A stretch of DNA of 64,000 nucleotides from Bdellovibrionales bacterium. GTDB lineage: Bacteria > Bdellovibrionota > Bdellovibrionia > Bdellovibrionales > UBA1609. This document shows positions 3,170-58,439 of the stretch, one piece after another (within the stretch, counting starts at the first letter, position 1; every line of letters starts with the position of its first letter). The notes below the pieces were generated by a model, which made no database searches, was not told the DNA's origin, and was given only the letters and a program-made list of their open reading frames with translations. Location of the stretch: positions 257,989 to 321,988 of the forward strand of contig DAIDIG010000001.1 of the NCBI GenBank assembly GCA_027459485.1. The letters run 5' to 3'. Both the position numbers and the translations under genes were made by a program.

Positions 3170-3198
3170 CTTGACGAAAAGCGGCCCGACCCCAAGTT
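3170..3198 (+). promoter_or_regulatory. Sigma32-type heat-shock promoter candidate for dnaK
   Basis: GGGCTTGAC (CTTGAC at 3170-3175), a 14-nt spacer, then CCCCAAGTT (3190-3198). This fits the E. coli sigma32 consensus CTTGAA-N13-15-CCCCATNT well. AGGAG SD at 3211-3215. Confidence 0.5.
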
Positions 3199-3223
3199 CT
3201 TTATATCTGAAGGAGATTTTTAA

Positions 3224-5151
<1,928 letters not shown>

Positions 5152-5155
<4 letters not shown>

Positions 5156-7937: not shown

Positions 7938-7958
7938 TGTGCGAATATTGGCGAAAAA

Positions 7959-9818: not shown

Positions 9819-9828
9819 TATTAACACC

Positions 9829-41122: not shown

Positions 41123-43482
41123 GACACCTCTTTGGCCTTCTTACTCGCATACGTCTCGCGTATAAACGAACGCGTGAACTTCAAAAACGCATCCGTTATG
41201 CCAAAGTACAGGGCTGAATTCAAGTATGTCCCTTTTTCCGATTCGCTTTCTTGCGAATGATAAATGCGCACGCACAGATTTTGATCAGGTGCGTTTACGT
41301 AAATCGAGCGAAAAAGGTAAAACATAGAACCGGGCTTGAGAGGTTGATTGGATTGAATAACGCAGCCGAATTCAGAAAGCTCGACGAGGTCGCATTCGCG
41401 TCCAATCTTGGCGTGGATGTGATCGTTTTTCCACGGAACATTATCGAAACGGTAGATGGTAAACGGGTTTCGCATCAAATGTGCGGCGACGTATAATAGC
41501 CGGCGCATTTCAGCCGGTTTGAAAGTAAGCGCCGCCACGGCAGGTTCGTTTAGAAGTTTGGAGACGTCGTCTTGCCGACTTTCGGCGGCTGTCACGATAA
41601 TTTTCGGCCCGTCGGCGGGGCACGAGATATTTGCCTCTTTCAGAGCGTCTCTTAAGCCCGTAAGAAAGGACGGAACGTTATCCGGCAAAAGCGCCTGGTC
41701 GATGACGATGACTTCGAGCGACTGAATCGATTCAAGGTGGCTGCGTGAGTTGCTCAACATTTTGATATCGGGCGCGCGTAAGTTAATACGAATCAAACCG
41801 CTCGTTTCTTCGAGTATAAATTCGGCCGCGACCGTCCGACGAACACCGTCGGCGGATGCGAGGTCCATGTTTTTTCTCACGCGTTTTGAGTGCGGTATCA
41901 GGTACATAATCTCGGTGAGTTGATTTCGCGTGTCGCCGGCAAAAACATCGAGCCAACCTTGCGGCGTTGAAAATAACTTAACCGCGTCGTGGCCGAGAAG
42001 AAGTTGACCCTCTTCGGGAGCGGTTATCGGCATCTGCAGATTGAGATCTAAACCTATTAATAGCCCGACAATATCGGCATAAAAATCTTGCGGCACGGAG
42101 GGTGACGCCTTTTCGATGCGATTCTTCTTGTCGATGTAAGTTTTAAAAAAACTGTAATAGCTGTCATCCCAAACAACGTCGAGATTGCCGATTTCTTTTC
42201 GAGCGTATTCGTATATCGATCGCGCGGTATTTTCATCGGGATCGAGTACAACTAGCGTCTTTCTTTTTTTTTCTTCGTCCGAAAGAAAGATATTTTCGTG
42301 ATTGAACTCGAACAATTTTGGATCGTTGTCGACAAATTGCTTGTGGGCGGTATCGCGCTGCAAATATTGTCGGAGCTCGCGATTGTTGGCTTTCGTCAAA
42401 CCGAAAAACGCGAAATACACGAGGAACTCTCCTTCGCGATCGGGATGCGGTTCAGATCGGATCACTTTGCCGTAAAAGTCGAGAAGCGGCGCCTGCCCTG
42501 GAAAGCGAAAGTAAAAATGACCGCCGGTGCCCTCAGTCAACGGAACAGGATTGGCCATGGCAAAACCTTGATCGCAAAAGCGCTCCAAGTATACCCGCTT
42601 AGCGACCTCCACCTTTTCAAGTGTTTCTTGCACGAATAAAAAGCTAGGGCTTGGCTTTTTCGGGATTGCGAGCACAATTTCGAGCTTTTGCAGAAATATA
42701 AGGCGATCAAGCGGTAAGCACAAGAGATCGTCTATAAAAGGATGATTATACTCCGCCTTTTCGGCTGGGTCGTCTTCATATCTGAGTGCAATGAATTTCG
42801 GTCGATTGTCGGGTGGCCAGCGCTCGGCCTTCTTGAGAAGCGTCGCCGTCTTCGTCACCCATTTTCGCATCACATCGGGCTTTTGGTCGATCGGGCGAAA
42901 GATGATGAGGTCGACCGGATTCTTGGAATCTTCAACCGGTGCCTTTTCCTTTTTTTGAGTCTTACCCAGCCCTTTCGCGACATCGGCCGTATGGTCGGTG
43001 AGTTTCAGAACGTACGTCTTCTCGGTGGAGCGCCCTGAAACTTCAGCGACCCACAGCTCGTTTTTGTCTGACTGAAAGACAAACATATGCGGTTTATCGT
43101 TCGGTGCTTTCATTGCTTCGAGGGCGGATTTAAAAAGCGGACGGCATTTATCGAGAACGATGGTTTCAAGCGATACGCTTTTCGCTACAAGCTCCGTCAC
43201 GGTGCGCCCGAATATTCTCGCGATGTTGACGCGCAGTATTTGACCGCTGGTCGCATCGATTTCGATTTCGGTTGTGCCATCTTGAAGCGCTGGCTCTTGC
43301 GCGAATGTCGCCTCGCCTAAATGTTGAACAACATCTGGCGGCAAACCTTCAAGATATTGAGTATGCTTGGGTTTTGCCACCGGCTTGAGAACGAGGCTTG
43401 AAAAAAAGTGGCGTTCGAACTCCCGAACATTCGGGAATTCTTTTACATCTTCGAGTTCCAGCTCACGCAGATATCGAAGCAT
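41119..43482 (-). CDS. Large signalling-type hypothetical protein (REC-like N-terminus, PilZ-like C-terminus); true start may be ATC at 43530
   Basis: 787 aa from the ATG at 43482. In-frame upstream codons encode (I)GTVVVIEDDLKIRQE with AAGGAG 6 nt before an ATC. C-terminal CDLVELSEFGCVIQS resembles the PilZ D/NxSxxG motif. Confidence 0.65.
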   Translation of the reverse strand: MLRYLRELELEDVKEFPNVREFERHFFSSLVLKPVAKPKHTQYLEGLPPDVVQHLGEATFAQEPALQDGTTEIEIDATSGQILRVNIARIFGRTVTELVAKSVSLETIVLDKCRPLFKSALEAMKAPNDKPHMFVFQSDKNELWVAEVSGRSTEKTYVLKLTDHTADVAKGLGKTQKKEKAPVEDSKNPVDLIIFRPIDQKPDVMRKWVTKTATLLKKAERWPPDNRPKFIALRYEDDPAEKAEYNHPFIDDLLCLPLDRLIFLQKLEIVLAIPKKPSPSFLFVQETLEKVEVAKRVYLERFCDQGFAMANPVPLTEGTGGHFYFRFPGQAPLLDFYGKVIRSEPHPDREGEFLVYFAFFGLTKANNRELRQYLQRDTAHKQFVDNDPKLFEFNHENIFLSDEEKKRKTLVVLDPDENTARSIYEYARKEIGNLDVVWDDSYYSFFKTYIDKKNRIEKASPSVPQDFYADIVGLLIGLDLNLQMPITAPEEGQLLLGHDAVKLFSTPQGWLDVFAGDTRNQLTEIMYLIPHSKRVRKNMDLASADGVRRTVAAEFILEETSGLIRINLRAPDIKMLSNSRSHLESIQSLEVIVIDQALLPDNVPSFLTGLRDALKEANISCPADGPKIIVTAAESRQDDVSKLLNEPAVAALTFKPAEMRRLLYVAAHLMRNPFTIYRFDNVPWKNDHIHAKIGRECDLVELSEFGCVIQSNQPLKPGSMFYLFRSIYVNAPDQNLCVRIYHSQESESEKGTYLNSALYFGITDAFLKFTRSFIRETYASKKAKEVS

Positions 43483-44218: not shown

Positions 44219-45691
44219 TTAACCCATCCACGTCGTGTCTTTTTGCGACGCCCACTTCGTCGTGATTTTCTTTACATCCGACCACAAATCGAGACTATGC
44301 ACTCCCGTGATGTCGCCTTGACCGAATTTAGATGCGGCTACTCCGCCAAACGAAAACGGCTCGCGCGGGACGGGTACTCCGATATTAACCCCGACCATTC
44401 CCGCTTTGCCGTATCGCGCGACATAATCGGCGATGCCGCCATTTTGCGTAAAGACCGACACCGCGTTGCCGTATATCGATGAGTTTTGAATTTTGAGCGC
44501 TTCAGCAAGCGATTCGCAGCGGACGATACTGAGAACGGGCCCGAATAATTCTTCGATCGCCGCCTGACTGCCGGGCTTCACGCGATCGAGAATGGTGGGC
44601 CCAAGCCAATTGCCGTTTTCATAAGGTTTCGGCACGCGCGGTTTTCGACCGTCGAGCACGAGGTGCGCGCCGTCTTTTTCGGCCTGCGCAATCGCCTTTT
44701 GCAATCTCGCCAATGACTCAGTTGAAATGATCGCGCCCATTCTCTCGCCGAGCGATATTTGTTTGGCTTCATCCACAATACCTGCCACGAGTTGATCGAT
44801 TCGTTTTTCTTCAGCCGGCGAATGAGCGATTGCGCACAACACGCTCGCGGCCATGCAGCGTTGACCGGCACAACCGGTGAACGAATCGGCAACACCGCGA
44901 GATGTCAGTTCGTAATCCGCATCGGGCAACAAAAAGATGTGGTTTTTCGCTCCACCCAAGGCCAACACTCTTTTCATGCTGCGACTGCCGCGTTCGTAAA
45001 CGGATTTCGCTACTTGAGTGGAGCCCACAAACCCGACAGCTGAAATAGTCGGATGATCGAGCAAAGCTTCGACCGTTTCGCGGCCACCGTGAGCGATTGA
45101 GAAAACTCCCGCAGGCAATGCGGCTCGAGTGAGTGCATCCGCGAGAAGGCGCGACGTGAGCGGGGTTTTGTCGGATGGCTTCCAGACAAAGCTGTTGCCG
45201 AGTGCAAGCGCGATCGGGATCATCCACATCGGCACCATGGCCGGGAAGTTAAACGGCGTAATGCCCGCGACGACGCCGAGAGGCTCGCGGCGATATTCGC
45301 AATAGACACCGCGCGAGACTTCGATTCGCCCGCCGATGTCGAGGTTCTGAAGCGACAGAGCGAATTCGGTGACTTCGATTCCTTTAAGTAATTCGGCTTC
45401 GGCTTCGGCCGGCGTTTTGCCGCATTCATTCGAAATGCATGCGGCGATTTCTTTGATTTCGTTTAAGAGGATCTCGCGAAAACGAAACAGCACCTGCGAA
45501 CGCTCTTTAATCGGCGTTTCGCGCCAGGCGCGTTGGGCTTGAGCCGCTGCATCGATTACAGCATTTAGATCTTTTGGTGTACTCGAGTAGGCGCGGCCAA
45601 TCACTTCATTGTTGTACGGGCTCACGACTTTGAATTCTTGGCCCGACGGTTTTTGCCACTGGCCATTACAAAAGTTCAGACATTCGATCAT
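44219..45691 (-). CDS. mmsA: CoA-acylating methylmalonate/malonate-semialdehyde dehydrogenase
   Basis: ALDH family with the MMSDH-type catalytic Cys context FTGCAGQRCMA and N-terminal NFCNGQW. Confidence 0.88.
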   Translation of the reverse strand: MIECLNFCNGQWQKPSGQEFKVVSPYNNEVIGRAYSSTPKDLNAVIDAAAQAQRAWRETPIKERSQVLFRFREILLNEIKEIAACISNECGKTPAEAEAELLKGIEVTEFALSLQNLDIGGRIEVSRGVYCEYRREPLGVVAGITPFNFPAMVPMWMIPIALALGNSFVWKPSDKTPLTSRLLADALTRAALPAGVFSIAHGGRETVEALLDHPTISAVGFVGSTQVAKSVYERGSRSMKRVLALGGAKNHIFLLPDADYELTSRGVADSFTGCAGQRCMAASVLCAIAHSPAEEKRIDQLVAGIVDEAKQISLGERMGAIISTESLARLQKAIAQAEKDGAHLVLDGRKPRVPKPYENGNWLGPTILDRVKPGSQAAIEELFGPVLSIVRCESLAEALKIQNSSIYGNAVSVFTQNGGIADYVARYGKAGMVGVNIGVPVPREPFSFGGVAASKFGQGDITGVHSLDLWSDVKKITTKWASQKDTTWMG

Positions 45692-46200
45692 TTGCCGCTC
45701 AATAGTTTAAGTCCCTTACGGATAGCTTCGATTTCAGTAATGCCACTCTTTTCAGTGATTGTCTTGAGTAATTTTATATCGTTTTGTTGAAAGCGAAAAG
45801 TTTTAAGCAGTGTCGGAGATTTATGTTTGTGTCCGATTTCAGTTACCCATTGCATATACTGAGCGGCAGGTATCCCGTAAAACGGCTTTGTCGGATGTCC
45901 CTTGCGAATATCCTGAAGTATCTGTTTGATCGGATCGGGGAGAACAGTGGTGCGAATAAGTCGCGGTCTTTTTAATAGAATCGCGGGCAGTAATTCATAA
46001 ATCCGCGGCTCAATTCGGCCGGCCCAAATGACGTCGGGCAAATCAGGGCGCCCCAAGTAAGGGTACGGTCGGTTAATGAATAAAAACCCATGTTTTTTAA
46101 AAAAACCGATCGTTCGGCGATAGCGCAGATCTTGCATATCTTTGCGTATTGCACGCAGGCGTTTTTTCGCTTCTTTGTAAATCAAATTGGGCTCGTTCAT
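45688..46200 (-). CDS. Hypothetical basic protein translationally coupled to mmsA
   Basis: 170 aa, Lys/Arg-rich, with no signal peptide. ATGA overlap with the mmsA start. No family recognised. Confidence 0.55.
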   Translation of the reverse strand: MNEPNLIYKEAKKRLRAIRKDMQDLRYRRTIGFFKKHGFLFINRPYPYLGRPDLPDVIWAGRIEPRIYELLPAILLKRPRLIRTTVLPDPIKQILQDIRKGHPTKPFYGIPAAQYMQWVTEIGHKHKSPTLLKTFRFQQNDIKLLKTITEKSGITEIEAIRKGLKLLSGK

Positions 46201-46307
46201 TTGATCAACTCCTGCAAATTGATTTTATATTTCATAAGGCTTTTGGAAGACTATGTAAATACATAAAAAACAGTTGTAAAAACAAATGGTTGTTATAGCT
46301 TAAGGCC

Positions 46308-47519
46308 GTGACGACGAAGATTAAAATTATTTTGGCCGGCGGCGGTCACGCCCATTTGCTTCTTTTAAAAAACTGGCCGGCGGCTGAGCGCCCGAATGTC
46401 GAAATCACGCTCATTTCCGAGTTCCCGACAGCCGTGTACTCGGGGATGGTGCCCGGTTACATCGCCGGCACATACACCCTAGACGAAATTCAGGTTGACC
46501 TTGCAAAGTTGGCGGCTGCGTGCAGAGTCAACTTTCTTCGCGCAGATATAACGGGGCTCGATCTGACGGCGCGTGAAGTGATCACGAACTCGGCGGGATC
46601 AATCAAGCGCGTTCCGTTCGACGTTTTGTCTCTCGACGTCGGCAGTCGGGCGGGTGTTTCACGCGTGCGTGAGAAGTCGGGCGGCGCCGATCCTGGTCGC
46701 GAATTTTCAATCAAGCCACTGCAAACGTTTTTAGAGAATTGGCGGCGGGTGAGTGCGGATCCCGCCATTCGCGAAATTGATGTGATCGGCGGTGGTGCGG
46801 CCGGTCTGGAGTTGGCTCTTGCCATGGCGAGCGCATTGCGACTGGTACGCGCGCCCTCGAAGATCCGTGTCTGCTTGCACGAGCGGGCTTCACGAATTCT
46901 GCCCCAGATGCCACGGCGGGCTTCGCGCATCGCTTTGAAACGCGCGCAGGATCTAGGCGTTGAAGTGCAGTTGAACTCGAGCGGGCAAATCGGTGCCGAC
47001 AAAAAAATGGGCGAAGCTGTTGATTCCGGCGCTCGGGCGCGGTTTGTCGCGGCGGGGCCGACGGCTCCTGAATGGTTTCGCGAAACGGGATTGGATCTGA
47101 GCGCGGGCGGTTTTATTTGTATCGATGAGTTTTTGCGCGCCAAAGGTCACGCGAATATTTTCGCGGTCGGGGACTGTGCCGAATTTTTGCGGCAAACCAG
47201 CGGAGGCCAACCTCAACCCATCCCGCGTTCGGGGGTGTACGCCGTCCGCCAATCTCCCGTTCTGTTAAACAATTTGCGTGCGGCTTGTGAGGCTTGTGCC
47301 GAGCCACACTCAACCAAGGTTTCGGCGTCTTTGCAAAAATATCATCCGCAAAAACGCGCGCTATATTTGCTTTCGCTCGGAGATTTAGACGGCAACCACA
47401 AAACAATGTTCACTTGGGGCCTGTTCGCGTTCGCGGCGAAGTGGCTTTGGTATGTGAAACGATGGATTGATCGGCGGTACATGCGGGGGCTTCAAAACTC
47501 GTACCGCCAAGCTAAATAA
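46308..47519 (+). CDS. FAD-dependent pyridine nucleotide-disulfide oxidoreductase (NDH-2 / SelD-N-terminal-like)
   Basis: GTG start. KIILAGGGHAHLLLL and IDVIGGGAAGLELA dinucleotide folds, plus FAVGDCA. Confidence 0.8.
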   Translation: MTTKIKIILAGGGHAHLLLLKNWPAAERPNVEITLISEFPTAVYSGMVPGYIAGTYTLDEIQVDLAKLAAACRVNFLRADITGLDLTAREVITNSAGSIKRVPFDVLSLDVGSRAGVSRVREKSGGADPGREFSIKPLQTFLENWRRVSADPAIREIDVIGGGAAGLELALAMASALRLVRAPSKIRVCLHERASRILPQMPRRASRIALKRAQDLGVEVQLNSSGQIGADKKMGEAVDSGARARFVAAGPTAPEWFRETGLDLSAGGFICIDEFLRAKGHANIFAVGDCAEFLRQTSGGQPQPIPRSGVYAVRQSPVLLNNLRAACEACAEPHSTKVSASLQKYHPQKRALYLLSLGDLDGNHKTMFTWGLFAFAAKWLWYVKRWIDRRYMRGLQNSYRQAK

Positions 47520-50195
47520 CTATTGCAACACGCGGAAGAACACGCCGAGTTCCGGGTGTTCGTGATTGATGTACGCTTGAACCATATCGCCTTTGCGGAT
47601 TTCGATCGTGTGAAATTCTCCAGGTACACCCGGCGTGCCTGGTTCGCCATTCGGCCCTGGAGGGCCTGGCGGGATGCCATTGTCTTGATAGCGACCGTTC
47701 AAAATGGCATCGCGAAGTTTCGCCGTGATTTGCTCATCGATGGTATTGACGACTTTGCTCCCGTCTTGTGCGCCGGCTAGCTTCGAGCCGATGTATCCAG
47801 CCATATCGGCCTGATTTTCGAAAGTGATGCCGATATCCCGTTCAGCATAAACATCAATCAGGTTTTGCAACTTCAAGTCGATAAGGGGACCAATGGACTT
47901 ACCGGCCATACGGGGCATCACGATAATGTTCTGGATACGACGAAGAAAAGCCTCATTGTAATCGCCGTTTTTTATAAGGTATTCGTCGATCTGAGCTCGA
48001 CTCGATTGCGGTGTCAAGACGTCGGTCCCCGCATTGTCTGTCATGATGACGTCTATATTTTTCATACTGGCGACTCGCCCCATGCTATCTGTGAGTCGAC
48101 CGCCGTTGTCGTCAAGCCATGTCAGCAGAATGTTATCTACAATACTTTTGTGCATCCGCGACGGCTCATCGATATGAAGCTCGGCATATGGCTTTTGGCG
48201 AATTGCATTTTGAATTGCCGAACCTTCCGCCGCGCCTTGGTAACCTTGACCTGCCGAAGTGAAGTTACTTGCTTGAAAAGCTTGTTGATAATCGCCGCCG
48301 TTAATCGTGATTCGCTCGCCGCCCTTAAATGCGTTCGAGTAAGATATGGCGAGTTGGGTTTTACCACCGCCCGGTGCGCCCAAAATAAGCGTGACCGAAC
48401 GAGGAGCGTCGGGGCCGCGAATTCGAGCTGCCGAGTTATCAATCGCGCGAATTAAATTGTAATAGGATTCAGCGCCGGCATACTCCTTCTGAAAGTCCGC
48501 CCAATTCTCTTCAAACGTCCTCGGCTTCACATCCTTTAAAATTTCGACGTATGAAAATTCAGGGTGATCGCGATGAATTTGAATTGCCAGGTCCTCGATT
48601 GTGAGCCTTTTCAATTTTGCCTGAACGGCATTGCCTTCGTTGACCTTATTTTGCAGGTCCGTGATTCGCGTTTGAAGCGCCGAAATTTCTTGCCGGGCCG
48701 CTTGAACTTCGATGGGTTTTCGAGCTTGATGTATTTTGGCTTCAGCAACGTTTAGTTCGCCTTTCGCTTTGGTGAGTTCCGATTTGGCTGCGTCAAGAGC
48801 CTTCATCTTCTGCGCCGCCTCGTGAAGTTCAATCGATCGAGCTTCGGCTTTGTCAATTTTGGCTTGAAGCTCAGCGAGCTCACCAGGAATTTCTTCGACC
48901 CGGTTTCGCGCAAAACGACCGGGTAACTGTTTGAGTTCTTGTAACTTGCTTTCGAGATTCGCCTTTTCGATTCGCAATTCTTGCGCGAGCGAGATTCGCT
49001 CGCCAAGACTCAAGATTTTATCTTCGCGGTTGATGGCTTCGGTGAGTAGGTAGGCCGAGCAGCCTGGCTGAGCCATATCCGGGTAATACCGACGGCAGCG
49101 TTCATCCGACCACTTCACTACGTCGTCGTCTATTTCGACGTTATTTGCTTTTTCAAGTTGTGCGACCTCGTGCTCGAGGGCTCCCTGTATTTCACCGGGC
49201 GTCAGCTGGCGAACATATACTAAGCGCCAACCTCGTTCTTTCGCGAATGGGTAGAGCGATTTGATTGATTCAGGGTCGCCGATATTGCCGGTTTTCGTAT
49301 CAACCCCGCCCTGCGCTTCACCGATAAACAGAAGATCGGGGTCTTGAAGAGTTTGGCGTGCAATCGCCTGCATCTCATGAATGTCTGGCGATTTCACTGT
49401 CGCGACATTGCCAGCCTCAGCCTTTTGCCAATTGCGAAGGGATGTAAATAGCACAATAAATTTTGGCTTATCACCTTTGCCGTAATCAAGACCGGCCAGC
49501 TTCTTTTCGTTATTGGCCGCCATGACCTTTTTTAGTTCGCGCTCGAGTTGTTCGGGGGTATGGATTTTCGTAGTGTCGACTTCAAGGATACGCGTATCGC
49601 TCGGAAATTTTTTTAAGCGACCTTGGATAATCTCTCTCTGCACTTGATTGATAACCGAGGTTTTACCACCCATCGGGGGGCCGTATGTGATCACTCCATC
49701 AGTGGTATAGCGGCTATCGAGCGCGACGAGCATATTTTCGACTTCAACATTTCGCCCGATGGTCGGCGGCAGACCCCCGTTTATGGCTTCGACGTATTTG
49801 TCTTTGATCAAACCGCCCGTTAGTGTCGAGATTACATCCTGTAGACGCGATAAAGGCTTTAGGCCGTTGCCGCCGTTTCCGTTACCGCCGCTTGGTGTTT
49901 GAGTCGAGTTGGGTTTCGCTTGATTGTCTTCATCCGTCTTAGCAGTACGCAGGCCGCCTTCATTCGATTCGGACATTTTCAAGTTGGGGTCAGCGACGTC
50001 ATCCGGCTTGTTTCTAAGCCAACGCCATGCCCGCATCATGAAGCTTTCGGTACCGCCCGATTCTTGAACCATATTTGCGGTACTGCTAACAATGTTGCCG
50101 TCACCTGCCAATGGGATATCAGCGGCTTGGGCAAAGGCTCGAGCGCCACCGACGGCGAGAAATGCGGCAATGACGTAAATTGAAAGTTTGTTCAT
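47520..50195 (-). CDS. Diverged two-NBD ClpB/Hsp100-like AAA+ protein with Sec-type signal peptide (891 aa)
   Basis: ORF 47520..50243 trimmed to MNKLSIYVIAAFLAVGGARAFA|QA, with a GAGGA SD. NBD1 TIGRNVEVENML...GPPMGGKT (49659-49682). A coiled-coil middle region (about 48606-49013). NBD2 GAPGGGKT (48357-48380), LHIDEP, LLTWLDDNGGRLTDSMGRVASMKNIDVIMTDN, co-linear with E. coli ClpB by eye. Confidence 0.8.
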   Translation of the reverse strand: MNKLSIYVIAAFLAVGGARAFAQAADIPLAGDGNIVSSTANMVQESGGTESFMMRAWRWLRNKPDDVADPNLKMSESNEGGLRTAKTDEDNQAKPNSTQTPSGGNGNGGNGLKPLSRLQDVISTLTGGLIKDKYVEAINGGLPPTIGRNVEVENMLVALDSRYTTDGVITYGPPMGGKTSVINQVQREIIQGRLKKFPSDTRILEVDTTKIHTPEQLERELKKVMAANNEKKLAGLDYGKGDKPKFIVLFTSLRNWQKAEAGNVATVKSPDIHEMQAIARQTLQDPDLLFIGEAQGGVDTKTGNIGDPESIKSLYPFAKERGWRLVYVRQLTPGEIQGALEHEVAQLEKANNVEIDDDVVKWSDERCRRYYPDMAQPGCSAYLLTEAINREDKILSLGERISLAQELRIEKANLESKLQELKQLPGRFARNRVEEIPGELAELQAKIDKAEARSIELHEAAQKMKALDAAKSELTKAKGELNVAEAKIHQARKPIEVQAARQEISALQTRITDLQNKVNEGNAVQAKLKRLTIEDLAIQIHRDHPEFSYVEILKDVKPRTFEENWADFQKEYAGAESYYNLIRAIDNSAARIRGPDAPRSVTLILGAPGGGKTQLAISYSNAFKGGERITINGGDYQQAFQASNFTSAGQGYQGAAEGSAIQNAIRQKPYAELHIDEPSRMHKSIVDNILLTWLDDNGGRLTDSMGRVASMKNIDVIMTDNAGTDVLTPQSSRAQIDEYLIKNGDYNEAFLRRIQNIIVMPRMAGKSIGPLIDLKLQNLIDVYAERDIGITFENQADMAGYIGSKLAGAQDGSKVVNTIDEQITAKLRDAILNGRYQDNGIPPGPPGPNGEPGTPGVPGEFHTIEIRKGDMVQAYINHEHPELGVFFRVLQ
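47613..47666 (-). repeat. Collagen-like G-X-Y x6 coding stretch inside the ClpB-like C-terminal domain
   Basis: Encodes GPP-GPN-GEP-GTP-GVP-GEF. Read directly from the reverse complement of 47613-47666. Confidence 0.9.
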
Positions 50196-50303
50196 GACAT
50201 AGTCCTCGCAAATTATTCCGAACCACAACTGTGCAATCCCCATTCCAAGTCTGACGTAACAAGATCGAACTCACGCAATCGACCTTGCCGGGAATTGTCA
50301 TCC

Positions 50304-50338
50304 AGGTGTCTATATTTTTGACACCTAAAGCGGGTGTC
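50304..50338. promoter_or_regulatory. Operator-like GGTGTC motif cluster in the divergent intergenic region
   Basis: AGGTGTC (50304-50310) and its inverted copy GACACCT (50320-50326) are separated by 9 nt of A/T. A third GGTGTC lies at 50333-50338. TTGACA at 50318-50323 overlaps the inverted repeat. Confidence 0.3.
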
Positions 50339-50390
50339 AGCCTCTAGAATCCAGTCGAGAGTGGAACGTAAATTGCCTTCTATATAAGTC

Positions 50391-52283
50391 ATGAAAGCTC
50401 TGATTTCATTGTTTCTAGCACTCTCCATCATCTTGGGCCCCTTGCAGGAGATCAACGCGGCGGCTGAGCCCCGAGCAGAGGCGGCGGCGAACGGGCTGAC
50501 CGTAGCGGATGTGCAATTAATCAACTCGCGGCGATCGACGCTCGAGCAGGTTTTTCTCGTTTCGCTACTCAATCGAACCCGCCTTTTCGAAATATTGAAC
50601 AAGGTGCTTTTTCAAGCTCAAAACGATTGTCTGCAAAATCCTTTCAGCTTTTACGTCACTGTTAAACAATCGGGCAATTGCCCGGCGATTGTGAACGAGA
50701 TGCTTTACAACATCAAAGTTAATTACCCCGATATCAGAAAACTTTACGCCGTTTACAATTTGATTCGAAATTCCAAAATTCTGCTCGACGCCCTGACTCA
50801 ACGAGAGGGCTACCGGTTCAGCGACGGCCCAATTCGGACGCCGTTAGGCGAAGCCCAGACGGCTCTTGATTATTCTCGAGATTTGACCCAGGGGCCGATA
50901 GACGTATCGTTGAGCGATCTCAGCTTAAAATCGCCGATACCGACGCATTTTCAGGGGCTGCTCAATGGATTTGACATTCAAAATATTCGACCGACGCTCG
51001 AAGACTATCAACTGGCTGCCTCGAATATGGCGCCCATGCTCATCGCGGAGCCGTGCGATTCGTGCAAAGGTGGCCTCGAGCCGACAAACTACGACTTATC
51101 GGTGACAGGGCTCTATCAGAAGGAGTGCAGCGACTATGTCGCCGCCAATCTCGGCAAAATGCTCATCGCCCCCGACTATGCGCGATGGCCCCGCCAATCC
51201 GGCATGATCTGTAAAGACTTTCGATTGGCATTTAACCGAAACACTCAGAAATTTTCTTTTGTGTTGTCGGGGTTACCTCGTGATTCGAGTGCGTGGAACC
51301 ACCAGTGGCTCAATTTGTATCGGGACGTCGTAAATAAGGGGCTAATGGCTCATCGTGATGATATGGTCGCATACGTCAAGATACGGTTATTTGATCTCAT
51401 ATCTCAAGCCCCTTATGCTGCTTTGGTGGGGACGCCCACTCCCTCACTTTTTGCCCTGAAAAATGCGATTCGAAGCATTGCTCATCAGGCGGCCAAAGAT
51501 GAGAGCGACTTCGAAAAACTATTCTTAAAATTACGAGTAGCACCAAATAGTCAAAAAGATTACCAAGCCAAACGAAAGCAATACCTAGCCCTGATGGACC
51601 GCTCACAAGTGGTGAAAAATCTGCTGCAATATCCTTCGCCCGATATGCAGGCTGAAGCGGACAATGCAGTATTCGGAAAAATAGCGCAGGACCTGACCTT
51701 CGAGCGGCAGATGAACCAAACTGTACATAATGTCGTCGTCAGCGTCGCTTGGCTGGCTCTGCCTGTCGTGAGCGGCTATTTGTGCACGGCGCTGGCGAAA
51801 ATACCCGCTACGATTTGCTCAAGCGTGATTATGGCTGCGACGGTGGGCCTCTCAGCACCTTATGTTTGGCAGAGCTTCTCGAATTTCAATCAAATTTTTG
51901 GAGAAATGTTTGCCGGTCAACAGATTGGCAATAATGAGGCGGATGGGTTGGCCGCGTCGCCGAAATTAGCGCGAATTGATTCGTCGGTGGCAAATCCAGC
52001 AGTTCTTCGCAACTTGGTGCTGCGAGATCTAGACGAGGTCGATTCGGCCTACGATGCTGAGATTTTTCAGATCGTGTCAGCCGGTGCCGGTGCCGCGATC
52101 GGGGTCAAATTTGAAGTTCCGCGAGTCAACGCTCTCTACAAAGTGCTGTCTGAAGGCCTCGAATCAAAAGCGGCGATCGAGTCACCCGAGGCTGCGAAAG
52201 ACGCCGCGAAAATTATGAAGGCCGCACGATTTCTCGCTCGTTTGAACCCGTTCGGAACGCCGAAGGGTACGCCAGCACCTTAA
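50391..52283 (+). CDS. Large exported hypothetical protein (630 aa) with internal hydrophobic hairpin
   Basis: Signal peptide MKALISLFLALSIILGPLQEINA. Hydrophobic pair VVVSVAWLALPVVSGYLCTALA / ICSSVIMAATVGLSAPYVW at residues about 446-492 (51726-51866). No SD, and a TATATAAG lies just upstream of the ATG. Confidence 0.65.
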   Translation: MKALISLFLALSIILGPLQEINAAAEPRAEAAANGLTVADVQLINSRRSTLEQVFLVSLLNRTRLFEILNKVLFQAQNDCLQNPFSFYVTVKQSGNCPAIVNEMLYNIKVNYPDIRKLYAVYNLIRNSKILLDALTQREGYRFSDGPIRTPLGEAQTALDYSRDLTQGPIDVSLSDLSLKSPIPTHFQGLLNGFDIQNIRPTLEDYQLAASNMAPMLIAEPCDSCKGGLEPTNYDLSVTGLYQKECSDYVAANLGKMLIAPDYARWPRQSGMICKDFRLAFNRNTQKFSFVLSGLPRDSSAWNHQWLNLYRDVVNKGLMAHRDDMVAYVKIRLFDLISQAPYAALVGTPTPSLFALKNAIRSIAHQAAKDESDFEKLFLKLRVAPNSQKDYQAKRKQYLALMDRSQVVKNLLQYPSPDMQAEADNAVFGKIAQDLTFERQMNQTVHNVVVSVAWLALPVVSGYLCTALAKIPATICSSVIMAATVGLSAPYVWQSFSNFNQIFGEMFAGQQIGNNEADGLAASPKLARIDSSVANPAVLRNLVLRDLDEVDSAYDAEIFQIVSAGAGAAIGVKFEVPRVNALYKVLSEGLESKAAIESPEAAKDAAKIMKAARFLARLNPFGTPKGTPAP

Positions 52284-52448
52284 AATCCGCTGGCTCGCAG
52301 AAAACGTTATGCCAAGGGAACAATTTTAGACTACTTGATTCTCTGATCACGCGTGAGTAGCGGTATGATATAAGCAAGGCTGGTCGCCGCGATAATTTCA
52401 TCGGCGGGATCTGAATGAAAATCGAGTACCTTGAGCGCCGCCATCACG

Positions 52449-54197
52449 TCAAAATCGATGGGGGGCGGCAAGAGGGAGTTTTTGAATCTGCGAATAAGTC
52501 GCCCGCAGTTGGGAGTAGGCTTCGCCGAGACTGACCGCCAGACAATTACCGCCGATGCCGGCCGCGAACTTTTCGCATGAAAAGTGATCTTTGATTTGGC
52601 CGCCGAAGATGCTCATGACAATTTGCTTCGTCGCCGGGTCGTAGTGAATCCCGCTATTGGCCGGAACACAGCGCTTCGGAGGCAGGTTCGCCGAACCATT
52701 CTTGTTAGTTCCCCCGCCGTAAATGGTATTGGCCGATAAAAACTGATACCAAAGCAAATACTCGGCAAGCTCTTCGGTCGCCAATTGGCGGTTGTACATC
52801 GAAATATGTTTTGTAAAGGCATCGACGTTGCAACTGAAATTGAGCGCGTCGAGAGCATTGTAAGTGGTGTTGAGAAGTTCCTTTTCTTTGCTGTTTGGTA
52901 GTAGCGCTCCGCTATCGACCGGTACCAGACGCGTTGTGAAATCAAATAAGTGACCCGGCATGTGTTTAGCCAACTCGTACTTCCAACCCCTCTCCGGACC
53001 ATACAAATGATTGTAAAGTCGTTGAAGCCCCATATGGTGCCCCGCCACATTGATGACGCCGCCGACGCTGGCCATGCCCATCAATTTCATGAGAGTGACA
53101 AACTGCCATTTTGGGTTTGAGAGACCGAGAAACCGTAGCAAAGTTTGAATTCGAGCGGCGCGCTGATATTTTTCGGTATTCTCGCCAATTTTCAATTTGA
53201 AATTCCGCTCTTTCATGCGCTCTTCAAATTTGGCTCGGGCCTTGGCGTCGTTACTCATTGCCTCCTGCAGAAGTTGAGAGTCCGTTACGTTTTGCGCACC
53301 CTTATAGCCGATCGACTCGAGTTCGGTCTCGAGTCCGCTGATTTGCAGCCTCATCTGCATTATTTCTGTAAGTGCTTGGGCGCGCGCCGGGTCCTTCTTT
53401 GCGATGATATTGATACGTTTCAACATTTTGGCGGTGTCGAGCACGTCTGCGTTGGCATCTTCCGCCGCATCGGGGAGTGCGCCCCGCAACGAACGAAACA
53501 GACCGCCCCACGATTCGGTCATGCCGTTCCAGGTATCGGCAATGTAGGGCCACGCGCGGGGATTGACGATAGTTAGAATGAACGCAGCCGCGCCCGCCCA
53601 TTTGAGGCCGACTAAAAACTGCTGGGCCGGTTCTGATGTAATTATTAGGTTTCGAAAAGCGGCATTATTGTCGTATTGATCATTGATTGTTTTAAAAATG
53701 GTGAATACGGCAGGTGCCGATAGTGGGTCAGTGATGTAGATACCGGCCAGAGTCACAATCTTATGATTGAAATCCGAATTCGTGCCCGTCAAAAGATTTT
53801 GAATAACAGCCGTTAAGGCGGTCGCGAGCGGTCCGTCAGTTTGAGCCTCGGCATCATCGACTTGTTGCTCGATCGATTTTGAGCCACTTTGATTTTCGGC
53901 TTTTGTCGCATTGACGACGTTGGTGTCAAAGTCACTTGTCAGAAGAGCATTGTTCAGTTCGCTTGCAAATCGTTGCTGTTTCGGCAGTGACTCTTGCTGG
54001 TAAACTCGAAAGTAATGGTTGAGTAGAATTCTGAACTCTTCATATTCACCAGCCGGCACGTTATTTTGAATGAGGGCCAAGGCAGCTGGAGCTAAAACGG
54101 AGGGTTCCGACGGCTGTGGCGGTTGTACGGCCATCAGATACGAAGATTGGGTGACTACCAAAACTATCGCGACAATCATCCGAAGACTTCGCTTCAT
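52449..54197 (-). CDS. Large exported hypothetical protein (582 aa)
   Basis: ORF 52449..54260 trimmed to MKRSLRMIVAIVLVVTQSSYLMA, with a GGAGG SD 6 nt upstream. ATGA overlap with the upstream 1138 aa gene. Internal hydrophobic helices FLVGLKWAGAAAFILTIV and FVTLMKLMGMASVGGVINVAG. Confidence 0.65.
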   Translation of the reverse strand: MKRSLRMIVAIVLVVTQSSYLMAVQPPQPSEPSVLAPAALALIQNNVPAGEYEEFRILLNHYFRVYQQESLPKQQRFASELNNALLTSDFDTNVVNATKAENQSGSKSIEQQVDDAEAQTDGPLATALTAVIQNLLTGTNSDFNHKIVTLAGIYITDPLSAPAVFTIFKTINDQYDNNAAFRNLIITSEPAQQFLVGLKWAGAAAFILTIVNPRAWPYIADTWNGMTESWGGLFRSLRGALPDAAEDANADVLDTAKMLKRINIIAKKDPARAQALTEIMQMRLQISGLETELESIGYKGAQNVTDSQLLQEAMSNDAKARAKFEERMKERNFKLKIGENTEKYQRAARIQTLLRFLGLSNPKWQFVTLMKLMGMASVGGVINVAGHHMGLQRLYNHLYGPERGWKYELAKHMPGHLFDFTTRLVPVDSGALLPNSKEKELLNTTYNALDALNFSCNVDAFTKHISMYNRQLATEELAEYLLWYQFLSANTIYGGGTNKNGSANLPPKRCVPANSGIHYDPATKQIVMSIFGGQIKDHFSCEKFAAGIGGNCLAVSLGEAYSQLRATYSQIQKLPLAAPHRF

Positions 54198-57100
54198 TGC
54201 GAACCTCCAGCCATGGGGTTCGCCATTCCGATTTTGGCTGATTGGGCGTGAAGATCCCACAAGTCTTGCACAGTTGCATTCGGCCCGATCACCGATTGAG
54301 CATAAATCTTGAGGGCGCTATTGCCGCCCATCTGTTCAGCACGACCGCCTATCACCGACACGATTTGATTGTAAGCAGCTCTTGCGTCGTTGATGCGGTT
54401 GAAATTGCCTGAAGCTTCAATCGCGCTCAGACGCTCGTTGAGATTCGCAAGCGTCAAAGTTGGATTGTAACCCAAATCGAGAGCGCGAATGGCCCCTTCA
54501 AGATCGATTCGATCGTTTCTGCCGAGATTGATTATGGTTTCTTCGGCTGCTTGAACGGCGGCTGGGTTACCGGACGCGATGGCGGCCTCGAGTTGGCGCG
54601 CTCTGAGGCCGGGGCGTCGCATAGTCCAGTCCACAGCTCGGCGAAACCAATTCGCGTTCACTTCGCTGAGACTCGCATTGTACGCTCCGATGCTGCCGAG
54701 AGCGCCGCCCATAAATACTATCATCACGCCGTCTGAAATCATGCTCCATTTGCTGTTGTCATTGGCGTATTGAATGGCGCCCGTGCCGTTGCGATAGCCG
54801 TCATCAGTCATGAAAATTCCGCTGCGCGTGTTCACGCCCTGTGAAAAATAAAGCTCGTTCACGGCATCCATGTGAATGTAATCGTTTACAAGTATGCGGC
54901 TTGATTGAATGCCGACATCTAGAAGCGTTTGTGCATATATCGCCATTGGTAAGAACATTCGTGTCATTACGGGCGCCATTCGCATCTCAATTTGAGACAT
55001 AAATGCCGGCAGAGCCCGCATCACTGAAAATTTGGTGGCGACGGTGCGAAGTGGCGCTGCCAAGATGTTTTGGGCCATCCAGTAAGCGAAGTACCAGCTG
55101 AAAACCGTTTTGATGGTCGCCATGTAATTGTCGTATACACTCCAGCCGATACCGGTCGTTCGTGAGATGTTGGCCTGCTCAGCTTCGACGAAGGCTTTTA
55201 TTGCCGGTTGGCTCTCGAGTAGATTAGGCAATCCATCGGCGTCGTTCAAAAAGCCAATCAAGCCGTTCATGTTTTCGGCCACCAAATACGTTCTGGCTTC
55301 TTGAGCCAAATTGTAATCGATGAAGCGAAGCCCCCAATCAATTCGCTGGGCGGCGATCGACGGGCTTTTCGCGTTTGCGATTTTTTCAAATAAGTATGGC
55401 GCCGAGTGATCGAAGCGGTTGCTCGAATATCGCAAAGTCAAAAACCGAACATCCGGCAAGATCAACTGCTTGACGTACGCGATTTTGTACTGCTGAATCT
55501 CGCTCTTCAGAGCGGCGCCGGAGAGCTTCGTTTGCAAGACATCCACGGCATCTTGCAATGATTTAAATGGCGCCGCTTGTGGGTTGAGCCCCATCATATC
55601 GGCTGTGTCATGCATGAGAACGCATTGGGCGTTCGGGCTGAGTGCGTTCTTACCGAACGAAATGCCAAACGCGCTTAGCACAATTTTGCCGATGGCTTTC
55701 GAGTCGGCTCTCACGCGACTCGGGGGCTTGCAGTCGTATCCGCCGTTTCGAGCATCGGTTGCGAGATGGCTGCTAACGACAGACCAGGCGGAGCGCATGC
55801 CCTCATATCTCGATTGCTGTAGAACAACTCGAAATCTCGCTATGTTCAGTGCACTCAGTGAGTTTTGCAGGTACGGAGCCCGCGTAAAGGCCATGATGTG
55901 AGGATTAAACGGGATCTCGCTATTGGGCGTTTTTGAACTATAAATAAATTCGGCTTTGAGCGCGAGGGCAAAGCTCGAAGAATAAAAGTTGCCATCCGGT
56001 TGGCTCATTTGACTGGTGGTGGCGTGGCTTCTCAATTTTGCGAAGCGAGCGACAATGCCATTGAACCAATCGAGTACCGGCTTCTGGGCGAGCGCTTGAT
56101 CAACCGTTTCGCTGGCCAACTGATAAAGGCTGTCGCTGATCGAATTGATAACTTGATCGGTAGGCGGAGAAGAATTTTCTCTCGCAACAGCGTAAAATTG
56201 ACCGAAAAGGATGCGCGCATCCAAATATTTTTTGTAAATAAGCATCTGCCGTAGTGCCGACCTCGCTGAGACTTCATCGAGTGATTCGAGACGGCCGACA
56301 TAAAATTTGACGAACTCAATAAGTTGAAGCCCCAAAGACTTTTCTATGAGTGACAGGTGCTCATTCAGTTCGCGTTGCATTTTTTTAAACTTTTCAGCAG
56401 GCATATAAGGGTTGTTACTTTGAGCGTAGGTCGTGTTGCAGCTCGAAATGAGGCTTTGCAAAGTCGAAGCAAATAATGGGGATTGAGTCATCGTCATCAG
56501 CGGGCCATAGTATGGCGCCGCCTTTTCAGCGGCATCGGTGGCTTGGGTTAACCATGATGCGAGATTTTGAGAATCCTCCGCCGTTAGCGGGGGAGTGACT
56601 TTTGAGAATTTGCCGACGTTGTAGTAATAGGGATTGATAATCAGCGCCGTTAAATCGGGGACGGTGAGTTGTGCCCCGCCTGCCAAGTGGCTATTCAAAA
56701 ATGCTGTCATGGCTTGAGGTAGTACTTTGTCAGCGGTGACCGTACCGTCGGCGATCGCCAAACGAAACAACGTTTCACTGCCTTCGGCCGCTCGAGCCCG
56801 CTGCCAAGATTCGACTTCGCTGACCGGCATTCCCAAACAGGCGCGAGCCGATGGTGGCAAAGAGAGCGCAATTCGCGCGGGCGGCACACCTCGAACTTGT
56901 TCTTGCAAGAAATATTGCTCCACCATCTGTTCGGCAATCACACAACGGGTGGCTTCAAAATTGTCTTTGCCGCTGATCTGCAGTTGATCGGCAGAGGCCG
57001 CGGCATCTGAAATAATTGAATAGATCTTTTCGGGCGTGAGGCTCACAACGGCATCCTGAGGATTCAGGCTGATGACTTCGGCCTGGCCAATGGGTTGATC

Positions 57101-57610
57101 GAGGTTGAGTTGCGTCCACAGTGATGTTGGCACCGTGAACTGAACCATCAACTGAGCCTGTTTGAAATTCGTAATCTCATAGGGGTTTTGATAGGCAAGC
57201 ACCGATAAATAATTGCCGGCGGTATTCACGTACGATTGCACAATGGCTCGCATAAGGCCGATTTGCGAAGGTGACACCGACGTGTTCATAGCTTGCTTGA
57301 GTCGAATGGCAGCTGTTCGCAATTGCGCAGCTTCGGCGCGGCTCGTGGGGAGCGTACCCGCCGTCGTTTTTTGGTAGACGTCAAATTGGGCCTGAGCCAA
57401 ACTCGCATTGGCCTTCTGAATCGCGGCGAGCGCCGATTTCAAAACGGGAGTGGTCGGGTTTGTATCAGGGGCAACAGCAAATGTGCTGTCCGGCTCTTGA
57501 ACGCAGGCGGCCGGCTGTGAATCGGCTAAGGGCACGCCGGCAGGCGCTGCGATCGCGGATCTGGCAATAATAACTGCCAAAAGTATGCGCAATTGCCGTT
57601 TAATGCTCAT
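54194..57610 (-). CDS. Very large exported hypothetical protein (1138 aa) with three hydrophobic helices in the C-terminal third
   Basis: Signal peptide MSIKRQLRILLAVIIARSAIAAPA. Hydrophobic segments at residues about 832-853, 878-897 and 955-977 (54671-55123). No domain recognised. Confidence 0.7.
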   Translation of the reverse strand: MSIKRQLRILLAVIIARSAIAAPAGVPLADSQPAACVQEPDSTFAVAPDTNPTTPVLKSALAAIQKANASLAQAQFDVYQKTTAGTLPTSRAEAAQLRTAAIRLKQAMNTSVSPSQIGLMRAIVQSYVNTAGNYLSVLAYQNPYEITNFKQAQLMVQFTVPTSLWTQLNLDQPIGQAEVISLNPQDAVVSLTPEKIYSIISDAAASADQLQISGKDNFEATRCVIAEQMVEQYFLQEQVRGVPPARIALSLPPSARACLGMPVSEVESWQRARAAEGSETLFRLAIADGTVTADKVLPQAMTAFLNSHLAGGAQLTVPDLTALIINPYYYNVGKFSKVTPPLTAEDSQNLASWLTQATDAAEKAAPYYGPLMTMTQSPLFASTLQSLISSCNTTYAQSNNPYMPAEKFKKMQRELNEHLSLIEKSLGLQLIEFVKFYVGRLESLDEVSARSALRQMLIYKKYLDARILFGQFYAVARENSSPPTDQVINSISDSLYQLASETVDQALAQKPVLDWFNGIVARFAKLRSHATTSQMSQPDGNFYSSSFALALKAEFIYSSKTPNSEIPFNPHIMAFTRAPYLQNSLSALNIARFRVVLQQSRYEGMRSAWSVVSSHLATDARNGGYDCKPPSRVRADSKAIGKIVLSAFGISFGKNALSPNAQCVLMHDTADMMGLNPQAAPFKSLQDAVDVLQTKLSGAALKSEIQQYKIAYVKQLILPDVRFLTLRYSSNRFDHSAPYLFEKIANAKSPSIAAQRIDWGLRFIDYNLAQEARTYLVAENMNGLIGFLNDADGLPNLLESQPAIKAFVEAEQANISRTTGIGWSVYDNYMATIKTVFSWYFAYWMAQNILAAPLRTVATKFSVMRALPAFMSQIEMRMAPVMTRMFLPMAIYAQTLLDVGIQSSRILVNDYIHMDAVNELYFSQGVNTRSGIFMTDDGYRNGTGAIQYANDNSKWSMISDGVMIVFMGGALGSIGAYNASLSEVNANWFRRAVDWTMRRPGLRARQLEAAIASGNPAAVQAAEETIINLGRNDRIDLEGAIRALDLGYNPTLTLANLNERLSAIEASGNFNRINDARAAYNQIVSVIGGRAEQMGGNSALKIYAQSVIGPNATVQDLWDLHAQSAKIGMANPMAGGSQ

Positions 57611-57688
57611 TTCATTCGCCTCGTCTTCGCCCTCATTGAAGCAATTTCGGAAACTCCAAAATTTTGGACATTCCAGGCATTGAAGAGC

Positions 57689-57722
57689 AAAAAAAAGGCC
57701 AACATTACGTTGGCCTTTTTTG
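57689..57722 (-). terminator. Symmetric (bidirectional-type) rho-independent terminator
   Basis: AAAAAAAA-GGCCAAC-ATTAC-GTTGGCC-TTTTTT. An A-tract and a T-tract flank a 7-bp GC-rich stem. It lies between the 230 aa gene and the 1138 aa gene. Confidence 0.75.
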
Positions 57723-57746
57723 ACGACTGTTTAATTGTTTTACAGT

Positions 57747-58439
57747 TTACAGTGATACAGATGCGGGGTTCACGCCGTACTGGACAGCTGCGGGTAGAAC
57801 CGAGTCAGCGCACGTCGCGGCGGTGCCGTAGCAAATTTGAGAATTGCCATTAGCGTCCGTGTGTTTGCAAAGCTTAACTGCGATGGTGGCGGCTTCGTCT
57901 TCTGATACGCCGACAGCATTTGCAATTGCTTGGATGCGCGCTTTACCTACAGCTAATTTTATGTCAGCAGAAGCGTCCGAAAATTTCGTGTTGCCGAGAA
58001 CCTGAGTCTCTGCGCCAAGAATGCGAATCACTTTTTGGGCAGTGGCATCGTCTGTGTCTCCGCTTTTTGTTAAGCAAGAGTCGTGAATCAAACCGAGCGC
58101 ATTTGCCAAATTAAATGTAGCGCGATCAGCACCGACAAATCGAGAAGCCGGGGAGTTTGCCATACAGGCACCCGCGACTTCAGAAGTTTGCTGGTCAACT
58201 CGCGACGCCGGCAACAGCGAATTTGCCGTCGCTTGTTCGTTTGCGTTCAAAAGGCTACCTGCCCCACTGAGAGCACCCGCCGCGGCAGCAGCATCTGATC
58301 CAACAGTCCCTGCAGTTCGGCCGGCTTCAACTGCGCCTCGGATCGCATTGACTGCGGCGTCCGGCGCTGCTTCTTGCCCAAATGCTACGGCCGAGATCAT
58401 GCTCATCGCGATGGCCGCGAAAATTACGTTTGCTTTCAT
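57747..58439 (-). CDS. Secreted Ala-rich hypothetical protein (230 aa, 5 Cys in the mature part)
   Basis: Signal peptide MKANVIFAAIAMSMISAVAFGQEA. Ala/Gly/Ser-rich N-terminal half. Followed by its own terminator. Confidence 0.65.
   Translation of the reverse strand: MKANVIFAAIAMSMISAVAFGQEAAPDAAVNAIRGAVEAGRTAGTVGSDAAAAAGALSGAGSLLNANEQATANSLLPASRVDQQTSEVAGACMANSPASRFVGADRATFNLANALGLIHDSCLTKSGDTDDATAQKVIRILGAETQVLGNTKFSDASADIKLAVGKARIQAIANAVGVSEDEAATIAVKLCKHTDANGNSQICYGTAATCADSVLPAAVQYGVNPASVSL

Follow-up and report, generated by a model that had tools for sequence, protein, structure and literature searches.

A conserved Bdellovibrionales gene cluster encoding a divergent Hsp100 with a predicted signal peptide and four orphan proteins

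Within a stretch of 64,000 nucleotides from a Bdellovibrionales bacterium (assembly GCA_027459485.1, contig DAIDIG010000001.1, positions 257,989 to 321,988; hereafter the window), five neighbouring genes encode a ClpB-like AAA+ protein of the Hsp100 type (A) and four orphan proteins (B to E), and the products have signal-peptide-like N-termini. The same genes recur together in at least five lineages, and three of them lie behind conserved sigma-54-type promoter motifs. We tentatively favour, with rather less than even confidence, the reading that they form a sigma-54-controlled extracytoplasmic module in which the exported Hsp100 would thread polypeptides using ATP leaked from prey, with B and possibly C serving as its dock.

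The five genes are:

47520–50195, minus strand: gene A, predicted exported ClpB-like Hsp100, 891 aa
50391–52283, plus strand: gene B, predicted exported orphan protein, 630 aa
52449–54197, minus strand: gene C, predicted exported orphan protein, 582 aa
54194–57610, minus strand: gene D, predicted exported orphan protein, 1138 aa
57747–58439, minus strand: gene E, predicted exported Ala/Gly-rich orphan protein, 230 aa

An earlier reading of the sequence by itself (the original prediction) had proposed this block, and a listing of open reading frames (ORFs) matched all of its coordinates and sizes. It had also described D and C as translationally coupled and A and B as divergent across 195 bp. 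The stop codon of D and the start codon of C indeed share an ATGA at 54197–54194, and the A–B interval measures exactly that length (50196–50390). The start codon that we assign to A (MNK) has a Shine–Dalgarno sequence, GAGGA, 7 nt ahead of it, and an ortholog is arranged likewise; an alternative start, the ATG at 50243 that would open a 907-aa ORF, is not conserved.

Distribution and evolution of the block

We compared eight loci from five lineages, namely the window, L001/L003, L004/L005/L006, L007, and L008 (L002 is a duplicate of the L001 contig). Their GC contents range from 39 to 51 per cent, with L008 at 39.5 per cent. A word-indexed search with A returned one ortholog (51 per cent identity) and then ordinary ClpBs at about 113 bits, and the same kind of search with D returned D itself alone, missing an ortholog with 37 per cent identity. 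A profile search with B led to a third locus; the orthologs of B are P0053, P0054, and those of L004 and L008. An exhaustive HMMER scan with D found just five proteins among 1.84 billion representatives. Querying A and D for identical sequences matched no contig. Scans of JGI metagenomes with the A and B profiles gave no relatives, and a scan of the genome collection gave no contig beyond one already known, that of L001. Viral contigs scanned with C and D contained neither, and so gave no sign of a phage origin.

E-D-C, B, and A are present in every locus long enough to show them. The original prediction had made conserved synteny between the AAA+ gene and its neighbours a point to be checked, and the five genes co-occur in all five lineages despite rearrangements. 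In L004, B is inverted and the set is still together. In L008, a secreted PHB-depolymerase-type esterase (11511–12578) is inserted between C and B, and in L004 a secreted papain-like Peptidase_C1 (7144–8769) sits beside E in place of Bac_transf; these two enzymes may be cargo, accessory enzymes, or just neighbours. The window has two genes inserted between A and Aldedh.

Amino acid identities between the window proteins and their orthologs are as follows:

A: 51, 31, and 26 per cent
B: 50, 31, and 21 per cent
C: 43 and 28 per cent
D: 37, 32, 27, and 21 per cent
E: 45, 30, 30, and 26 per cent
Neighbours Aldedh, PNPOx, ugd, SDR, and Bac_transf: 55–81 per cent

In the distant lineages, block proteins fall to 21–32 per cent identity, as against 55–75 per cent there, and 55–81 per cent over all comparisons, for the neighbouring housekeeping genes. 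Between the two closest loci, the ratio of non-synonymous to synonymous substitution rates (dN/dS) is 0.09–0.12 for A, B, C, and D, so these four genes are under purifying selection. The block has evolved fast yet under constraint; it is vertically inherited and was found in one Bdellovibrionales clade.

Protein A is related to ClpB

That A is a ClpB-like AAA+ protein, as originally proposed, is agreed on by profile alignment, predicted fold, and structural search, which together identify a genuine Hsp100. Its only Pfam match is AAA_2 (4e-13). Among NCBIfam models the best match is ClpB (TIGR03346; 2e-37, 128.8 bits, below the curated cutoff of 1232.1) and the second best ClpV/TssH (TIGR03345; 5e-32, 111 bits, below the cutoff of 884.95); PRK10865 scores 99.7 bits, below its cutoff of 1417, and a match to the ClpA model is likewise far under the curated cutoff. 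A profile of A and its ortholog matched Thermus thermophilus ClpB (PDB 1qvr) at 6e-35, and residues 330–807 of A align contiguously to residues 321–791 of that structure, from the first nucleotide-binding domain (NBD1) through the M domain to the second (NBD2). Identity to any ClpB is only about 20 per cent.

An AlphaFold2 (AF2) model of A, built on an alignment of twenty-three Hsp100 sequences, has a predicted local distance difference test (pLDDT) score of 68. It contains two alpha/beta modules, a long coiled coil between them (residues 403–528), and a small C-terminal beta domain. Foldseek placed ClpC, ClpB, and Hsp104 at the top of the matches to this model and also returned HSP101 of the Plasmodium export complex PTEX, with about 760–795 aligned columns. 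Residues 1–116 have pLDDT below 50 and mostly no secondary structure, and no hit to Clp_N (Clp_R, PF02861) was found in A. The predicted layout therefore runs from a signal peptide through a disordered linker (to about residue 116), NBD1, the M domain (about 403–528), and NBD2 to the C-terminal beta domain. Just before that last domain, residues 840–859 (47619–47678) form a collagen-like run of about six G-X-Y triplets (GIPPGPPGPNGEPGTPGVPG), which occurs in the window protein only, the L001 and L008 orthologs being without it.

The two ATPase modules have had different fates. NBD2 is the most conserved segment of A and keeps Walker A, the G-Y-x-G pore loop, the Walker B DE, the sensor-1 Asn, and the Arg finger. 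G606, G609, G611, K612, G651, Y652, G654, D676, E677, N721, and R753 are invariant in comparison with twenty-two Hsp100s, and the set is also intact in the L008 ortholog (26 per cent identity). Where NBD2 would have its sensor-2 Arg, the window has K, L001 has A, and L008 has an R-like residue. NBD1 keeps its Walker A (GxxxxGK[ST]). Its Walker B is lost, reading FIVLFTS in the window, YDD in L001/L003, GKN in L004, and FDN in L008; the pore loop KYRGEFE, with its Tyr, is lost as well. Because Walker A is kept, ring 1 can probably bind nucleotide; because Walker B and the pore-loop Tyr are lost, it would neither hydrolyse nucleotide nor grip substrate. Between sensor-1 (TDNAG) and the Arg finger (FLRRIQ) there is no [ILV]G[FL] loop of the kind that docks ClpP (IGF/IGL). 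As judged from sequence and model, A is a new, strongly modified branch of Hsp100, predicted to have two rings and very divergent.

Such a pattern might also be explained if A were exported but had ceased to work as an ATPase. It would then be a holdase or scaffold, independent of ATP, within a periplasmic or surface structure; the major subunit of that structure would be E, and B, C, and D would help to assemble or anchor it. The periplasm is not expected to hold ATP, and this fits the idea, as do an NBD1 that is degenerate throughout the lineages (its Walker B DE being replaced by FTS, DD, GKN, or DN), the loss of the sensor-2 Arg in the window and L001, and the promoter and strong terminator belonging to E, an arrangement common for major structural subunits. 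We nevertheless consider it unlikely: NBD2 motifs that stay invariant down to 26 per cent identity, in the most conserved segment of the protein, are hard to explain without hydrolysis and threading, and L008 retains the canonical VVLLDEIEKA motif together with a sensor-2-like Arg.

Signal peptides

We judged signal peptides in all window genes by a crude rule that looks for n-, h-, and c-regions: a positive n-region, an uncharged h-region of about 8–16 aa, and small residues at positions -3 and -1. The rule accepts the N-termini of A, B, C, and E. Window D fails solely through an Arg that breaks its short h-region (ILLAVIIA-R-SAIAA). In the D orthologs of L004, L007, and L008, the N-terminal hydrophobic stretch is uninterrupted, with Kyte–Doolittle hydropathy (KD) of 1.67 in L004 and 2.17 in L007, and the orthologs of B, C, D, and E have signal-peptide-like N-termini throughout. 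About eight to ten of the forty other window genes also pass, some falsely (e.g. ugd). Since this is about a fifth to a quarter of them, five passes in a row would be unlikely by chance (~0.2^5). By this heuristic, the proposed run of five consecutive signal-peptide genes holds, with D carried by its orthologs. None of the five window proteins has a lipobox or twin-arginine motif, and we take it from their N-termini that the five products probably leave the cytoplasm via Sec.

The predicted signal peptide of A comprises residues 1–22, MNK-LSIYVIAAFLAVGGA-RAFA and, after the cleavage site, QA. It is kept in the window, L001, L003, L004, and L008, which are all the orthologs for which an N-terminus is available; the h-region is just 11–15 aa long, and A-x-A-type cleavage sites are kept. 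The larger positive charge sits in the n-region, and the first twenty-five mature residues are acidic, with few K or R, in three of the four lineages.

These features bear on another possibility, that A is cytoplasmic, its N-terminus being an uncleaved membrane tether or irrelevant, and that it acts as a dedicated unfoldase or chaperone preparing B to E for export in the manner of ClpV, EccA, or secretion chaperones. The cytoplasm does contain ATP, some Hsp100 paralogs are devoted to secretion systems (and ClpV/TssH matches A at 5e-32), and the charge bias around the hydrophobic stretch, K3 versus R19, is small. However, an h-region of 11–15 aa is too short for a membrane anchor, the A-x-A-type sites are conserved, the n-region has the larger positive charge, and the start of the mature protein is acidic and poor in K and R in three of four lineages. 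Moreover, a Cys pair (C367/C379) is conserved in four of the five A orthologs, and Sec substrates need no Hsp100. A cytoplasmic A is, in our judgement, quite improbable.

Orphan proteins B to E

B, C, D, and E had no matches in Pfam, NCBIfam, PHROGs, or PADLOC, nor did a Pfam scan of every B–E ortholog produce any. Profiles of two and then of four to five sequences found nothing in the PDB below E = 0.1. The original prediction had recognised no domain in the block besides AAA+ and had named family matches of the large proteins as a check on it; these scans gave no confident match to characterised families. B, C, and D were considered as mutual paralogs, which hhalign ruled out, there being no sequence relationship among them. 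On these comparisons, B, C, D, and E are new protein families. Consistent with an oxidising location, B has five cysteines that are invariant across orthologs, C two, D six, and E three.

B has one conserved helix of transmembrane grade (about residues 448–466, KD 1.4–2.0) and a weaker neighbour at 474–492. C has marginal Gly/Ala-rich hydrophobic segments at about residues 193–211 and 366–384. In A and E, the signal peptide is the sole hydrophobic segment. The idea that the three large proteins each carry two or three internal hydrophobic helices therefore fits B in part (one helix plus a weaker one) and C marginally, but not D, in which none is conserved. Likewise, the description of B, C, and D as membrane-inserting giant proteins is apt for B at best and weakly for C, and hydropathy argues against it for D.

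Promoters and terminator

Upstream regions were searched, in gene orientation, for TGG-N8-TTGC, which has the GG/GC spacing of the sigma-54 consensus TGGCAC-N5-TTGC[AT]. The regulatory features of the block are:

50233–50247, minus strand: sigma-54-type -24/-12 motif TGGAATGGGGATTGC, 37 nt upstream of the A start codon
50362–50376, plus strand: sigma-54-type -24/-12 motif TGGAACGTAAATTGC, 14 nt upstream of the B start codon
58554–58568, minus strand: sigma-54-type -24/-12 motif TGGCTTTGAGCTTGC, 114 nt upstream of the E start codon
50304–50326, no strand assigned: palindrome AGGTGTC-N9-GACACCT, between the A and B promoters
57691–57721, minus strand: predicted strong intrinsic terminator separating E from D, with a T run after a 14-bp stem

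The whole window holds thirteen motif matches. Three of them lie in the upstream regions of the block, which amount to roughly 860 strand-nt and by expectation would contain about 0.07. Motifs are found in every lineage for which sequence exists. That of A is also present in L001, L003, and L008, at 37–40 nt from the start overall, and that of B lies 14–15 nt from the start in L001, L004/L006, and L008, even with B inverted (L004); L003 likewise has the motif upstream of B. E has equivalents in L001, L004/L005/L006, L007, and L008, at 114–234 nt overall. In L004, where A comes after B in the same orientation, A lacks a separate motif. A, B, and E thus appear to be served by conserved, putative sigma-54-type promoters, and the shared motifs, at near-fixed distances for A and B, argue for one regulon. 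B has no Shine–Dalgarno sequence. The fixed spacing of 14–15 nt in the four lineages measured suggests that its transcript would be near-leaderless.

The operator-like repeat that had been described between A and B is present, and a third GGTGTC lies beside it at 50333–50338, but L001 and L003 do not retain the repeat in this form, so a conserved GGTGTC operator was ruled out. The palindrome and the extra GGTGTC stand where an activator site would be expected, and are a candidate site for a bacterial enhancer-binding protein (bEBP); the scan of window genes returned no such protein. We also considered a sigma-54 promoter for D and rejected it: the sole TGG-N8-TTGC in that place is formed by the end of the E terminator, and L004, L007, and L008 lack it. 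The GGCC-T8 part of this terminator recurs in L001. It likely acts as an attenuator that leaves E more abundant than D and C, which are probably read through at a lower level.

The promoters also bear on whether the five are anything more than lineage-specific genes encoding secreted proteins that happen to be neighbours, do not act together, and co-occur through regional synteny. The flanking Aldedh, PNPOx, ugd, and SDR are syntenic too, and B, C, and D share no sequence relationship. Against this stand the three conserved sigma-54-type promoters (A, B, and E), the coupling of D and C, and a set that stays intact while its neighbours change and B inverts. In addition, searches with A, B, and D turned up their families in these genomes only, with C and E alongside in all loci that are long enough. 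We regard a chance assembly of this kind as very unlikely.

Surroundings of the block

The window is core chromosome, carrying dnaJ, dnaK, RNase Y, prfC, ampG, and scpAB, and the GC content of the block equals that of the surrounding chromosome. Its flanks had been called ordinary, and they are: Aldedh and an FAD oxidoreductase on one side, Bac_transf and ugd on the other. Recent horizontal acquisition was ruled out by this surroundings-like GC content and by flanks that are syntenic across lineages, and a defence system or phage module was ruled out by the lack of matching hits. Between A and Aldedh, the interval 45688–47519 holds an FAD/pyridine-nucleotide oxidoreductase gene and a 170-aa ORF that matched no family; in L001 and L008 Aldedh directly follows A, which marks the interval as a local insertion or deletion where the block ends.

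Canonical cytoplasmic dnaJ and dnaK lie at 2018–5155 (plus strand), and no canonical clpB was found among the window genes scanned. A 787-aa protein encoded at 41119–43482 (minus strand) has only a borderline PilZ match (9e-5) and no NCBIfam match, and may be a large cyclic di-GMP-binding protein of unassigned type. A 688-aa ORF at 7959–10025 (minus strand) has no match in Pfam or NCBIfam. Two proteins encoded at 13796–15454 and 20422–21642 (plus strand) have cyclic-nucleotide-binding N-termini, with C-terminal parts otherwise without assignment.

Comparison with known systems

Like ClpB and Hsp104 (TIGR03346; PDB 1qvr, 4ciu), A has two AAA+ modules, a coiled-coil M domain of ClpB length inserted in NBD1, and in NBD2 the Walker A and B motifs, GYxG pore loop, sensor-1, and Arg finger; it shares with them the lack of a ClpP-docking loop. 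Unlike them, it has a Sec-type signal peptide and a disordered linker of about 95 aa in place of Clp_N, has lost the NBD1 Walker B and pore-loop Tyr, and has its sensor-2 Arg replaced in some lineages. Nor would a DnaK partner be expected for A outside the cytoplasm.

The PTEX translocon (HSP101/ClpB2, PTEX150, EXP2, TRX2, and PTEX88; PDB 6e10, 6e11) is a case of a ClpB-type Hsp100 working beyond the plasma membrane of its producer, and its HSP101 is among both the sequence and the fold matches of A. EXP2 and PTEX150 carry signal sequences, PTEX150 is without known homologues, and EXP2, in which a disulfide is conserved, makes a pore in the membrane (PMC7355975). PTEX differs from the block in being eukaryotic with dispersed genes, and its HSP101 differs from A in that both NBDs are active and an N-terminal domain is present. 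B, C, D, and E show no similarity to EXP2, PTEX150, or PTEX88, and the PDB profile searches, which included the 6e10 and 6e11 chains, gave no hits. As an analogy, PTEX would be attractive as a mechanism, but it fails as a family to which the block could belong.

ClpV/TssH from type VI secretion systems (T6SS) resembles A as an Hsp100 paralog dedicated to one envelope machine; unlike A, it is cytoplasmic and has no signal peptide, and the scan of window genes gave no T6SS families. Skd3/CLPB of the mitochondrial intermembrane space and the torsins of the ER lumen are AAA+ proteins sent by an N-terminal signal to a non-cytosolic compartment. Human CLPB matches NBD2 of A with no specific relationship beyond AAA_2, and these proteins differ from A in having a single AAA+ ring and in residing in compartments that contain ATP. 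Translocators of type III secretion systems and the pore domains of colicins recall B, in hydropathy only, as hydrophilic helical exported proteins with a hydrophobic helix or hairpin. Such hairpin translocators show no sequence or profile similarity to B and have no secretion-system genes to match them here, and the likeness is absent in D. We found no report of a Sec-exported Hsp100 in bacteria in the literature searched, whose coverage was incomplete and which is thus weak evidence, and the sources searched describe no bacterial counterpart to the five-gene combination.

Discussion

A single co-regulated, extracytoplasmic module is favoured by the clustering of the genes despite rearrangement, their promoter type, the coupling of D and C, the signal peptides, the cysteines, and the fast, constrained evolution of the set. 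In the mechanism that we propose, A would be a ClpB-derived, most likely hexameric motor that threads polypeptides outside the producer's cytoplasm, driven by ring 2, which keeps its hydrolysis and threading residues apart from the variable sensor-2 Arg. B, and possibly C, would dock at a membrane through a conserved hydrophobic helix or hairpin, and D would be a large soluble partner. E, with its own promoter and strong terminator, would be the most abundant component, small and disulfide-bonded. The only plausible source of ATP would be a permeabilised prey cell, from which it would reach the periplasm or bdelloplast; the module would then be active only at the predator–prey interface, where it might extract, unfold, or move polypeptides. 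Of the functional unit that was originally envisaged around an exported Hsp100, the clustering, the shared promoters, and the signal peptide of A bear out the core, but not membrane-inserting giant proteins beyond B.

A number of observations weigh against this proposal. The periplasm is normally without ATP. Ring 1 of A has lost its Walker B and pore-loop Tyr, the sensor-2 Arg of ring 2 is replaced in the window and L001, and the Cys pair of A is absent in L008. The case for export of A to E is an N-terminal sequence heuristic, and the block holds no outer-membrane or secretion component that would provide a route beyond the periplasm. The membrane dock has one marginal conserved segment in C (KD 1.3–1.67) and, from hydropathy across orthologs, no conserved hydrophobic segment in D, and a single-sequence AF2 model of B (pLDDT 36) gives no structural clue to partners. 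Because the flanks are syntenic as well, part of the conservation of gene order is plain vertical inheritance. Finally, the predatory lifestyle is assumed from a single locus label (‘Bdellovibrionales bacterium’, the L001 contig).

With respect to the first of these points, Bdellovibrio is reported to take up ATP directly (Ruby & McCabe 1986). Such import, together with a partial equilibration of prey pools, makes an exported Hsp100 supplied with ATP conceivable in predators of the Bdellovibrio type. The inner membrane of the prey remains intact while its cytoplasmic and periplasmic pools come partly into equilibrium, and predator protein reaches that membrane (PMC10482364).

The significance of the block lies first in A. 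Lineages that retain only about a quarter of their residues in common keep both a predicted export signal and a second ATPase ring that is intact but for the variable sensor-2 Arg. Bacterial Hsp100 unfoldases are thought to be strictly cytoplasmic, the periplasm having no ATP. Either ATP is present where A works, most plausibly in permeabilised prey, or AAA+ rings have a conserved use that is independent of ATP.

How Bdellovibrio-like predators reach across the prey inner membrane is poorly understood. A bolder extension of our favoured reading, and one that we think distinctly unlikely, is a bacterial Hsp100-driven translocon convergent with PTEX, with A as the motor, B (perhaps with C) as a membrane-inserting partner, and D and E as adaptors, assembled at the prey inner membrane. 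Prey ATP would then push predator proteins into the prey cytoplasm or pull prey proteins out. If true, this would add a new class to the protein-transport machines of bacteria and explain mechanistically how periplasmic predators gain access to the cytoplasm of their prey. With four orphan families, three conserved putative sigma-54 promoters, and one recognisable motor, the cluster offers an object on which such ideas may be tested.

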